Shown here: piece by piece, positions 2,436-60,551 of the stretch | Layout of the letters: the number at the start of each line of letters is the position of its first letter | Position numbering within the stretch: position 1 is the first letter of the stretch | Origin: Cyanidioschyzon merolae | Taxonomy: Eukaryota | DNA length: 64,000 bases | Strand: one strand, 5' to 3' | Assembly: GCA_000091205.1 (NCBI GenBank) | Contig: AP006486.2 | The notes under the pieces: generated by a model | Seen by the model: the letters and a program-made list of their open reading frames with translations, nothing else | Databases searched by the model: none | Told to the model about the DNA's origin: nothing | Translations under genes and position numbers: made by a program

Positions 2436-2783
2436 TCAGACGCCCTCAGCCGTTTTCGACAGGCCCACTTTCATCGGCTTCAGCTTCGTCCTGCACACTT
2501 CGAGCTTGAGGGGCTGCCCCATGGAGCTGGATCGCGTCAGATCCTCGAGTCTCTTCTCCGGCACCGCACATCTCCTGATATTGATGGCAGCACTCAAGTC
2601 TCGATTCCCGAACTCTATAGGCTCATTGCCACTAATGGAACGCATCACTTCACGGATTCCTAAGCTTCTTGCTCTCAGTGCCAACCGATGCTCCGTGAGC
2701 GCCCCGTGCTTTTCTATCGCCGAAGCGCTCCGCGGCCTGCTCGCCATCACGACCTTCTGAAGTTTAAACCCAAGCTCATCCAC
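2436..2783 (-). pseudogene. TnpB/Fanzor-like C-terminal fragment with a RuvC-III-like motif 'NRDLSAAINIRRCAV'
   Basis: The 'D-x-(N/S)-A-A-I-N-I' motif is characteristic of RuvC-III in TnpB, Fanzor and Cas12. The same core recurs at 9.9k, 40.8k, 44.8k and 60.4k. No N-terminal RuvC-I/II is found in the same frame. Confidence 0.5.
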
Positions 2784-3478
2784 TGGATTTTCATTTCTTG
2801 AAATGAACGCACTTCTTCTTGCACTTAGGTGGGACCTTCCCGATGATAAAGAAGAACTTACGGAAGAAAGACGGGATGCATATCAGCGTTACCGTGTACT
2901 GAACATTTCAGCAATGCGCCCAGTGGAGCGATCATTACGTTTCTCGACGGGAAGCACTCCATGGATGGGGTCGAACCACGGAGAGTACGGAGGAGTGAAA
3001 ACCACTTCTACCCCGACAGAATTAGCAAAAGCTGGAACGCGACGTGAATGATGAAGTGCAACTTTATGCAATAGAGGGGTATTATCAGACGTGGGGAGAA
3101 GGCTTCAATAGTTGGACATACTGAATGCTGTTGTATGAACCCTCTCTACGAGCGAAACCAACGGCGCCAAACGAATCCTCTTGAACTAGAACAGATGAAG
3201 ATGTCCTCGTTCCCTACCAGCTCGATCGTACATACAGCGGGCTTGCTCTGAGCCAATACGCATATTCGTGCCGACTGTTTCATCTGAAGCAAGTCACATC
3301 GACCGAAAAAACATACCGACATCTCTGTTCTTCACAACCATGGCGACTTTCGAGGAACTCTGTAGTTGTGATGTTGGTGGAAGATGGCTGTGCATGAAAT
3401 TTGACTGCTTTTTTTGCGAATGTATCCCAGTGTATTCAGTAGCATACGAACAAGCTGTTGGGAAACAGAGACGCCCGT
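2500..3478 (-). mobile_element. Inverted-repeat arm A: ~1 kb copy of the TnpB/Fanzor-like repeat family, about 99% identical to arm B (9187-10170) in opposite orientation
   Basis: ORF pairs are near-identical between arms: 2436..2783(-) vs 9882..10418(+), 2380..2760(+) vs 9905..10279(-), 3268..3480(+) vs 9176..9397(-), 2889..3071(-) vs 9594..9776(+). Nucleotide identity breaks at 3478/9187 (inner ends) and near 2500/10170 (outer ends). Confidence 0.85.
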
Positions 3479-4854
3479 AACTGCTATTATCTTCTCCTTT
3501 GTTTTGCGTGAGATGATCGAGGAGTCCTTTTTGTACCATTCACCGCAAGTGGGTCGTGATAATGTCGGGTTTTGGCACCTTGCGCGTATACGTGTTTCTT
3601 TCAGTGTTCCTGAATTATCAGAGGAATGTGGCATGACTGACCTGAAGGAGTTTGTCATCCGCTTGCACTGTTCTGTAAAGACTATATCCTACAGGCAATT
3701 ATTCTACAATTTATAAGGTGCACTGCATCATGATTTCGATCTCTTGCTAAAGACTGCACCGGCTGTGGAACGAAACTGAGTTGTAAGACTATAATGGATG
3801 GTGAATGGTGGATCCTGAGGTCATGGTGCAGAATGATGAACACCCTCACGGACGCGAATAGTATTCGCGCTCAATCGAAGATAACTCTGTTCGTGTACAC
3901 GATCCGTCAATCATCATAAAGAAACTATCCGGTTGCTACATCCTATGGACCATTGAACAATAGCAGTGACACTTACCATCGAATCGGTGCATTTTTACCG
4001 AAAAGAACAAAAACTAACCTCTTACTAGCAACTCTACAGCAGCTTCTTTCTTCTCTACGCTGAGCGATAGAAGGGGGAGGAGTTTTCCGTAGTTTCCGAC
4101 GTTTACGTTCTGGGCGGAAGGTCCGGCGGGCCGGACAAGTCTGCAACGCAAGAACGTCATGCTCCTCCCTGTGGCGGGTGCTGCGGTTCGACCTTTAGCA
4201 GCTTGTCCGCAGCCCAGTTTATTCGGGCACTGGGCGTGGCCCTGGTCCCGGTGATCCCCTAGCTATCGCTTCGCATTGCCGCATGCAGTAGGTCTGTCTG
4301 CGCAGTTTGCAGGCTTCCGGAAGGATGATGTTATCCGATCCCGTGTCGGATGAACCACGCCTCGAGTCGACATGCCGATTGGTATGGCAACGCGGATCTG
4401 TCTCCGCGCTTCATCCGCACCAGCGGTATAGACGCTTTTGCGGGTGCTTACAACAGGCTCGGGGCACGGTAGAATATACGAAACGATCAGTATATCCGAG
4501 AGCAAATATGGGTAATGGAACTGGGACGTGTTGCGCAGCATGATGAACGCTTTCTCGATTACCAACGTCGATCACGCAATCTGGGATCCATGTACAACGT
4601 AAACGCTTCGTCGAAGAAAAAACATATAGAACTGAGCAGCGCGCTGGACCCGCCGCAGTTCGCAGCGACCCAGGTCACCAGATCCATACACTTGCCACAG
4701 GCAATAGCGTTCTGCACGCAATGAGCGCCTCACAGAAAAGGGTCACTTTAGTCGACAATTTTGAGGAGCTCTTTTTCGTTCGCGGAAGGAACGCCAAGGC
4801 GTAGAGAGGGCCGTTAGTCACCTGTGGGAAGCTATTTGTGGCTGTGTATTCTAG

Positions 4855-59800: not shown

Positions 59801-60003
59801 CACAGTCCAGCGTCCTGCTCAGGACAGCGCAGGGCGGCACAGACGAGCCGCTCCTGTGGGAACTGCCAACTGGATGGCGCTCTACCTGGACCATTTTCTG
59901 TCCACAAAAAAGTCTCTTTCTCTTCGACGAGTCGAAACGTCTCCTCGTCGTCGATAGAAGCAGGCAACTGCGCAGGAGACGTCGCCGCTGCTCCCGTGGG
60001 CAT
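53836..60003 (-). CDS. ABCC/MRP-type full ABC transporter (TMD-NBD-TMD-NBD), 2055 aa
   Basis: NBD1 has Walker A '[18 protein letters not shown]', signature '[16 protein letters not shown]' and Walker B '[12 protein letters not shown]'. NBD2 has '[16 protein letters not shown]', '[32 protein letters not shown]' and '[10 protein letters not shown]'. Multiple hydrophobic TM blocks are present. There are long low-complexity inserts between NBD1 and TMD2 and inside NBD2. Confidence 0.95.
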   Translation of the reverse strand: [2055 protein letters not shown]

Positions 60004-60149
60004 CTTCCGGCGCTGATGGTGTCGTGTTCCCAGTAAGCAAGGTGAAAGGCAATGCAGTTCAGAGTTGAAACTTTTTCTCTACAATTCCGTCAGTGCAAAG
60101 CGAATGCTGTCCAGTGTTCAGCCTTGATGTTAGATATCCACACGCGTGA

Positions 60150-60551
60150 CGCCTAGTCCTGATGGAGAGTCCACAGACAGTCAGAGCAGCGAACAATGTT
60201 TGCGATTTGCGAGGGTTCATGAGTACCCATGCCCAGACGCCTCCTAGTCATTTTTGACCGGTCGCCTGTTATCGGTTCCTGTGCTTATCCAGGTACGCTT
60301 CGGGCTTGAGAGGCTGTACCATAATGTTAGGTCGTCTTCAGCACCACACATCGTCTAATGTTGATAGCAGCGTTGAAGACTCGGTGGACAAAGTCCGTGC
60401 GTTTATTGCCGCGGCTTGGACTCATCCATTTAAGGATTGTTAGAACTCGTTCCTTCAGTGCGACTACAGTCTCGTCATCGTGCTGTCGGACAGGCGCCAA
60501 TTCCCGTGTATCTCCCCTTTTCTTGGTCCTCTTCGCGCGATGGTAGGCCAC
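60150..60551 (-). mobile_element. TnpB/Fanzor-like element fragment (RuvC-III and tail) directly upstream of, and co-oriented with, the ABCC gene
   Basis: ORF 60327..60551(-) ends with 'TDFVHRVFNAAINIRRCVVLKTT'. Downstream on the minus strand, 'MTRRRLGMG' resembles the 'GGRSKKLGRVC / SGRRLHDS' tails of the other copies. Confidence 0.5.

Follow-up and report, generated by a model that had tools for sequence, protein, structure and literature searches.

Loss of the RuvC-III catalytic aspartate among Fanzor1 copies of Cyanidioschyzon merolae is probably ordinary decay of a known transposon family

Copies of a TnpB/Fanzor-like gene in a stretch of 64,000 nucleotides from the red alga Cyanidioschyzon merolae (assembly GCA_000091205.1, contig AP006486.2; the whole stretch is called the window here) differ at one residue of their RuvC-III motif: aspartate is present in both arms of an inverted repeat (arms A and B) and in a copy at 40.8 kb (R5), alanine in a copy at 44.8 kb (R6) and valine in a copy at 60.4 kb (R7). 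A preliminary description of the window had seen in this a mixture of potentially catalytic and nuclease-dead genes, the latter being either decay products or domesticated RNA-guided binders. Here, we find that the window copies are best explained, with a probability of about 0.9, as members of a known Fanzor1 transposon family that have undergone ordinary decay, with neither a live nuclease nor a domesticated dead binder among them, and thus the first of these two alternatives is the correct one. An intact, potentially functional Fanzor1 gene was sought among all window copies with a profile hidden Markov model (HMM), tblastn and blastn, and none was found; R6 is the only copy that spans the whole gene, and all others are partial. 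In the course of events that we propose, an active ancestor would have carried the full D-E-D RuvC triad, and each copy, once inserted, would have been free of selection and would have accumulated substitutions, stops, frameshifts and truncations. The changes from Asp to Ala in R6 and from Asp to Val in R7 would then be random single-base changes, and the Asp of the remaining copies a codon so far spared by mutation. Presumably, no window copy is expressed as a useful product.

The motifs themselves are as first reported. A six-frame search of the window located every quoted peptide: NRDLSAAINI on the minus strand in arm A (2577-2606, Asp codon GAC at 2598-2600) and on the plus strand in arm B (10059-10088, GAC at 10065-10067), N*DFNAAINI on the plus strand in R5 (the asterisk denotes a stop; DFNAAINI at 40855-40878, Asp codon GAT at 40855-40857, in-frame TGA at 40852-40854), RAFNAAINT, in the context YRAFNAAINT, on the plus strand in R6 (44797-44823, Ala codon GCT at 44800-44802) and RVFNAAINI, in the context HRVFNAAINI, on the minus strand in R7 (60357-60383, Val codon GTC at 60378-60380). 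This confirms the distribution of D, A and V over the five motifs as well as the stop codon that precedes the R5 motif. The Fanzor1 family HMM matches the motif sites with E-values from 2e-110 to 2e-6, which excludes chance matches. Given these codons, Ala and Val are each one transversion away from an Asp codon (GAY to GCT in R6, GAC to GTC in R7).

The residue two positions before NAA had been taken to be the catalytic Asp of RuvC-III, and alignment to a structural template had been named beforehand as a possible refutation. In a HMMER profile alignment to the maltose-binding protein (MBP)-SpuFz1 fusion 8gkh, the family motifs GxDPG, VDEFRT and NRDxNAA place their Asp, Glu and Asp, respectively, at chain residues 777, 935 and 1000. 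Once the 394-residue fusion offset is subtracted, these are D383, E541 and D606 of SpuFz1, the metal-coordinating catalytic residues of that enzyme (PMC10432273; PMC11423790). The variable residue is therefore placed on D606 and the assignment stands: as judged from this alignment, it is the RuvC-III catalytic Asp position. The same alignment column holds a natural Asn, Asn658, in GtFz1. GtFz1, with Asn at the third catalytic position, is an active protein, the SpuFz1 mutant D606N exceeds the wild type in activity, and SpuFz1 D606A has been used as an inactive control (PMC11423790). Thus, Ala or Val at the D606-equivalent position would be expected to abolish nuclease activity.

That the family is TnpB/Fanzor-like, as the preliminary description had it, is borne out and can be narrowed to Fanzor1. 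With R6 as the query, 220 related predicted proteins were retrieved, nearly all from Joint Genome Institute (JGI) metagenomes, which we take to be hot-spring samples; their consensus reads "MEFVNRDFNAAIN". A profile search of the PDB with 20 close relatives (A1) returned spurious matches only, and such a search succeeded only once an exhaustive profile search, which yielded 1423 representatives of typically 600-700 residues, had added diverse relatives: the profile of 66 of these (A2) matched PpFz1 (9cf0, 2.4e-21), SpuFz1 (8gkh, 2.5e-13) and GtFz1 (9cer, 4.3e-6), and nothing else. The Fanzor1 fold, with WED, REC, split RuvC and TNB domains, was tested on an AlphaFold model of P0122, an intact relative rather than a window copy. 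This model has a predicted local distance difference test (pLDDT) score of 87.8, and its top seven matches in a Foldseek search of the PDB are Fanzor1 structures (E ~1e-16, template modelling (TM) scores 0.52-0.72), followed by Cas12f and other Cas12 variants. Pfam scans of the window open reading frames (ORFs) and of full-length relatives gave no match at threshold, only recurrent sub-threshold ones to PF07282, the Cas12f1-like TNB domain.

The family shares with the solved Fanzor1 proteins SpuFz1, PpFz1 and GtFz1 the overall fold, as modelled for P0122, and the D-E-D triad, and with SpuFz1 and PpFz1 also the NRD context around the third catalytic residue. It differs from them in that sequence identity is only ~12-15%, in that its consensus lacks the CxxC...CxxC zinc-ribbon cysteines between RuvC-II and RuvC-III, and in that it bears an acidic tandem repeat of ~22 residues just before RuvC-I (window ~43900-44080), the copy number of which varies among family members (P0001, P0003, P0007). 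The window copies, in addition, are pseudogenes.

The transposon family has already been described. Bao & Jurka (2013; Mobile DNA 4:12, PMC3627910) reported from Cyanidioschyzon merolae a Fanzor1 element, CMe-1A, of 3169 bp, encoding a 734-residue protein, CMe-1, and present in about 150 copies, each ~80% identical to the consensus, without terminal inverted repeats (TIRs). In our blastn searches, CMe-1A consensus positions 662-3169 correspond to window positions 42458-45046 (R6, 85-88% identity) and positions 2665-3168 to 40601-41104 (R5, 86.5% identity), and CMe-1 protein residues 1-734 match window 42710-44987. The match extends to the last base of the consensus, so the copies belong to the family described in 2013. 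They share with CMe-1A the right end "...CGCCACTACTGTACAC...GAAAGGCG", and the CMe-1 protein has "MEFVNRDFNAAINIRRCAVLE", in likeness to the window family; a search for an inverted repeat joining the element ends in R6 and in L008, an open metagenome copy discussed below, found none. R6 lacks consensus positions 1-661, and nothing essential differs. Arm-type copies, in contrast, have ~44-50% protein identity to CMe-1 and are not CMe-1A proper, and one or more further, more divergent Fanzor1 lineages have left remnants in the window, arms A and B together with a relic that we call R4 being one of them.

R6 (42458..45046, plus strand) holds the whole Fanzor1 gene and the right end of the element, with RuvC-I DADPG, RuvC-II VDELRTS and RuvC-III YRAFNAAINT still legible. 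Its frame is interrupted by five in-frame stops (42908, 43139, 43557, 43714 and 44224) and two frameshifts (near 43491-43495 and 43586-43588). What remains open is an ORF of 316 codons (44251..45201, plus strand), the ortholog of which, P0037, is 97% identical and carries the same Ala. This ORF begins past RuvC-I, so it holds only ~210 C-terminal Fanzor codons, and it continues across the element's non-coding 3' end in the direction of a helicase gene (ATG at 45153).

Could the Ala copy, the Val copy or both be domesticated, nuclease-dead RNA-guided binders akin to TldRs, kept by selection at fixed positions? The bacterial TldRs have intact, conserved ORFs and a guide RNA that targets a promoter of the host. 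The window copies resemble them only in the loss of a RuvC catalytic residue from a TnpB-family sequence, and differ in their broken reading frames and neutral evolution. In favour of such a role, both variants occur at the same position in related genomes (Ala in R6, P0037 and L001, the metagenome contig found via P0037; Val in the window and contigs L002-L005), the 316-codon ORF is open in two genomes, and both copies lie just upstream of host genes. However, the genomes compared are ~99% identical, so that any neutral sequence would be expected in all of them; the dead variants are indeed found at orthologous positions, but at ~1% divergence this is what any neutral site would show. Missing from the ORF, too, are WED, REC and RuvC-I, without which a guide RNA could not be held. 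R7, moreover, is a short fragment of ~90 codons with stops.

Comparison with L001, which is 98.9% identical to window 34247-55151, allowed us to ask how R6 evolves. Mismatch density is 1.7% in R6 and 1.2% in R5 compared to 0.3-0.9% in six host genes, while intergenic DNA mostly shows ~1-1.4% mismatch (range 0.6-5.5%). In the homologous frames, R6 differs from L001 by 26 non-synonymous and 10 synonymous changes, a ratio of non-synonymous to synonymous differences per site (pN/pS) of 0.73 (binomial p=0.42 against neutrality), whereas the pooled host genes have 19 and 22, respectively (pN/pS 0.28; p=7e-5); non-synonymous changes are seven times as frequent in R6 as in the host genes (p=3e-10). 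The residual ORF on its own gives 0.68 (seven non-synonymous, three synonymous). Of the R6 stops, those at 43139 and 43714 correspond to sense codons in L001, and at codon 44239 only L001 has a stop. The two also differ by a 1-bp indel at 43589, and L001 has Asp in place of the RuvC-II Glu at 44593. The Ala copy thus evolves neutrally between the two genomes, and its decay is ongoing and independent in each lineage. With its five stops, some of them polymorphic, two frameshifts and a pN/pS of 0.73, R6 does not fit the domesticated binder that had been put forward, nor does R7, and we consider this explanation very improbable.

Some observations do weigh against decay as a complete account. No purifying selection was detected in the Ala copy, but the power of this comparison is limited by the ~1% divergence between the genomes, and pN/pS therefore rests on 36 substitutions, with which weak constraint on a sub-region is still compatible. 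The 316-codon ORF has stayed open in both genomes. R7 shows 0-3 differences in the four other contigs in which it occurs, too few among five contigs for a selection test.

The copies that retain Asp might instead be the live ones. Such a reading of arms A and B and R5 as still catalytically competent Fanzor genes can point to an intact Asp codon and AAINI helix motif and, in arm B, to an ORF of 178 codons around the fragment (9882-10418), which starts at the RuvC-II motif. Yet all three are C-terminal fragments that lack RuvC-I: only the last ~110-140 residues are present, corresponding to CMe-1 residues 589-730 in R5 and 612-734 in the arms, and no RuvC-I, WED or REC is detectable upstream. 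R5 (40601..41104, plus strand), a 5'-truncated CMe-1A, consists of the last 504 nt of the element, which comprise the last ~142 codons, from RuvC-II ILEFRTS to the RuvC-III motif, and the untranslated 3' end, which includes the terminal hairpin; three stops, at 40600, 40852 and 41044, fall in or next to it. The arm fragments are preceded by a probable DDE_3 transposase remnant instead of Fanzor sequence, and nothing in the sequence points to the missing 600 N-terminal residues being joined to any of these copies in frame, for example by splicing. The earlier suggestion that potentially catalytic copies stand beside dead ones is therefore not upheld, as no window copy is intact and those with Asp are fragments, and there is hardly any chance that one of them encodes a working nuclease.

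The stop before the R5 motif recurs elsewhere. A CGA (Arg) codon just before the catalytic Asp has become TGA, by a CpG transition, in R4 (37850-37852), R5 (40852-40854) and the metagenome locus L050, and this codon looks like a CpG-transition hotspot that was hit independently in at least three copies.

How unusual is it that two copies in one window have lost the Asp? Among the predicted proteins that cover each site, the RuvC-I Asp is kept in 210 of 223, the RuvC-II Glu in 183 of 189 and the RuvC-III Asp in 152 of 159; the seven exceptions at the last position (three Asn, two Glu, one Ala and one Gly) are all short ORF fragments. The close family was also surveyed at 71 metagenome loci, each projected onto L008, a reference copy with an open frame of 752 codons. 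Asp is kept in all loci that cover the site (about 60), while all but two of the 71 are interrupted by stops (typically 1-7) or frameshifts. Those two are L049, which is partial, and L009, the L008 locus in another metagenome (773-3031 against L008 6001-8259, ~99% identical), whose only counted stop appears to be the terminal codon of the reference itself (index 752 of 753) and is not evidence for a polymorphic stop. No fully open 752-codon copy other than L008 was found, and even L008 ends ~45 codons early through a CAA-to-TAA change. With nearly all loci bearing stops or frameshifts, hardly any copy of the family in the environmental populations sampled has thus escaped pseudogenisation. For the window itself, a neutral upper bound of ~1-(identity)^2.67 for the loss of Asp per copy would lead to roughly three losses among six independent relics; two were observed, which is unremarkable and in line with decay.

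Arms A and B form an inverted repeat of 1046 nt that is 96% complementary (2432-3477 against 9188-10233), and a gapped alignment of 2495-3749 with 10170-8912 is 91% identical. Together with R4 they represent three copies of a composite unit of ~1.3 kb (2495-3749, minus; 8912-10170, plus; 36800-37981, plus), in which a probable remnant of a DDE_3 (Tc1/mariner-like) transposase is directly followed by only the last ~130 Fanzor1 codons, 44-50% identical to CMe-1. In arm A (2355..3749, minus strand), the DDE_3 remnant lies on the inner side and the Fanzor1 fragment on the outer side (2355-2822 by tblastn; HMM E=9e-8), the latter running from the RuvC-II motif to the tail in ~130 codons. Arm B (8912..10274, plus strand), its inverted duplicate, has the DDE_3 remnant at ~9300-9750, with the motifs VDVT/DETS, SDNAPLLH and PPYSPWFDPI in different frames and a Pfam DDE_3 match to profile positions 87-134 (E=5.7e-6; 26.7 bits, the cut-off being 28.6), and then the Fanzor1 fragment at 9843-10274. 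R4 (36800..38080, plus strand) is a third and more diverged unit (66-73% identity between arm B and 36800-37981 by blastn; C-terminal part at 37700-38080 by tblastn) and reads KEFMN*DFMPADKIRR*, with its Asp codon at 37853-37855. This chimera must have been duplicated as such two or more times.

Fanzor1 genes carried in Mariner/Tc1 elements are known, for example in PUl-1 and PUl-2 of Pythium ultimum (Bao & Jurka 2013, PMC3627910). As in these elements, the composite unit joins a DDE_3-type remnant to Fanzor1 in the same orientation; in contrast to them, the transposase remnant is followed by no more than the last ~130 Fanzor codons, neither TIRs nor TA duplications of the unit were found, and its DDE_3 match is under the Pfam cut-off. 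The arms face outward around host-type genes, for SCAMP and a PBP-like protein, and around a solo module treated below. Two independent metagenome assemblies end inside arm B (10033-10041), which suggests that the inverted repeat breaks short-read assembly there; the arms were for this reason left out of the comparison between genomes.

Beyond the copies first noticed, tblastn and the family HMM revealed three further relics in the window, R4 being one of them. R0 (58..1129, plus strand) is a divergent, frameshifted Fanzor1 relic that covers profile positions 280-606, with HMM matches in three frames (best E=1.3e-18) and ~30-38% identity by tblastn. It has several frame changes, a Gly at the RuvC-I Asp and HRDLNVPLNV at RuvC-III (Asp codon 1040-1042), and it may run off the left window edge. 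R3 (30990..32214, minus strand) is a relic of the N-terminal half (profile positions 4-385) in several frames, found by HMM (best E=2.5e-13) and by tblastn with P0122, and is without the RuvC-III region. R7 (60225..60700, minus strand), which blastn, tblastn and the HMM all detect, has an internal deletion: its 5' piece, at 60560-60700, matches consensus positions 832-969, and its C-terminal piece, at 60225-60485, reads "HRVFNAAINIRRCVVLKTT...", with stops soon after the motif.

The 5' part of CMe-1A also occurs by itself. A solo 635-bp module resembling TE-N2_CMe, an element described by Bao & Jurka (PMC3627910), lies between the arms (4002..4612, minus strand; blastn to consensus 5-636, 75.5% identity, E=4e-123), and another at 48577-48802 (plus strand; 68% identity to CMe-1A). 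R6 begins at consensus position 662, right past the end of this module, which suggests that the published CMe-1A consensus may itself be a composite. A tandem repeat array is indicated in intergenic DNA at 52493-52753 by staggered blastn matches offset by ~43 nt; it shows 2.7% divergence between genomes, the highest of any sizeable interval. The window as a whole has long, intron-free ORFs and 53% G+C, which, like the transposon family itself, fits C. merolae, a eukaryote whose genome would be nearly or entirely free of introns. A RecQ-like helicase of the window has its best match, at 99%, in a metagenome, the next at 56%, and then bacterial RecQ proteins.

The right end of the element calls for a separate weighing, as it leaves room for a reading in which the coding parts are dead and the 3' modules are kept. 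By 3' module we mean the C-terminal coding end together with the ~158 nt that end in the terminal hairpin, where Fanzor omega-RNAs are encoded; it could be retained as a non-autonomous guide-RNA unit or transposon end that a rare intact copy serves in trans, or as promoter or 5' untranslated region (5'-UTR) of the downstream host gene. Six of the eight window relics keep the 3' end. The right end is sharp, with conservation falling from ~0.8 to 0.4 at 158 nt past the stop of the L008 reference, and consists of the "CGCCACTACTGTACAC" box followed by a hairpin of 9-11 bp (41060-41104 in R5, 45000-45046 in R6, 8380-8416 in L008). The hairpin is maintained through different sequences and a two-base register shift, with entirely different stems in L035 and L021, a pattern consistent with a hairpin that functions as RNA or DNA where the Fanzor guide RNA would be encoded. 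One open 752-codon copy, L008, exists as well. On the other hand, RNAalifold on the alignment of the 3' region gave no supported structure as aligned, only nine weak pairs that all lie in the coding part, and an Rfam scan of the window gave 0 matches. Detection in old relics is biased towards the most conserved, C-terminal motif, and the relics diverge at the intergenic rate.

The placement of the copies bears on the same question. At 29 of 37 distinct family sites (loci L009-L079 and L008), the nearest downstream ORF of at least 150 residues is on the same strand (binomial p=7.5e-4), with a gap to this ORF of typically ~110 nt and usually within ~200 nt; on the upstream side, the closest ORF tends to be divergent, on the other strand (13 to 5). 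The window relics illustrate this: R5 ends 37 nt before the ATG of a Macro-domain gene (41141), R6 107 nt before the helicase ATG and R4 ~200 nt before a DnaJ gene (38284), all in sense orientation, and R7 lies 222 nt upstream of the ATG of an ABC-C transporter gene (60003) on the same strand. The bias in position and orientation may result from insertion preference, from survivorship in a compact genome or from residual use of the 3' modules. We regard it as unlikely, though less so than a domesticated binder or a live nuclease, that the putatively guide-RNA-encoding 3' ends of CMe-1A, lying in sense ~0-450 nt from host start codons far more often than by chance, are still used, whether as omega-RNA/right-end units served in trans or as exapted promoters or 5'-UTRs; the first two causes could produce the same bias.

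In conclusion, the candidate domesticated dead Fanzor is removed, and the copies are assigned to a transposon family published in 2013. Of use beyond this window are the structure-anchored match of the Asp of D-x-N-A-A to SpuFz1 D606 and a census of the near-complete pseudogenisation of this red-algal Fanzor1 family in the environmental populations sampled. The bias in placement and orientation is the only lead that we consider worth following up, and it may help to understand how Fanzor elements select their insertion sites, or persist at them, in a eukaryotic genome that is very compact.

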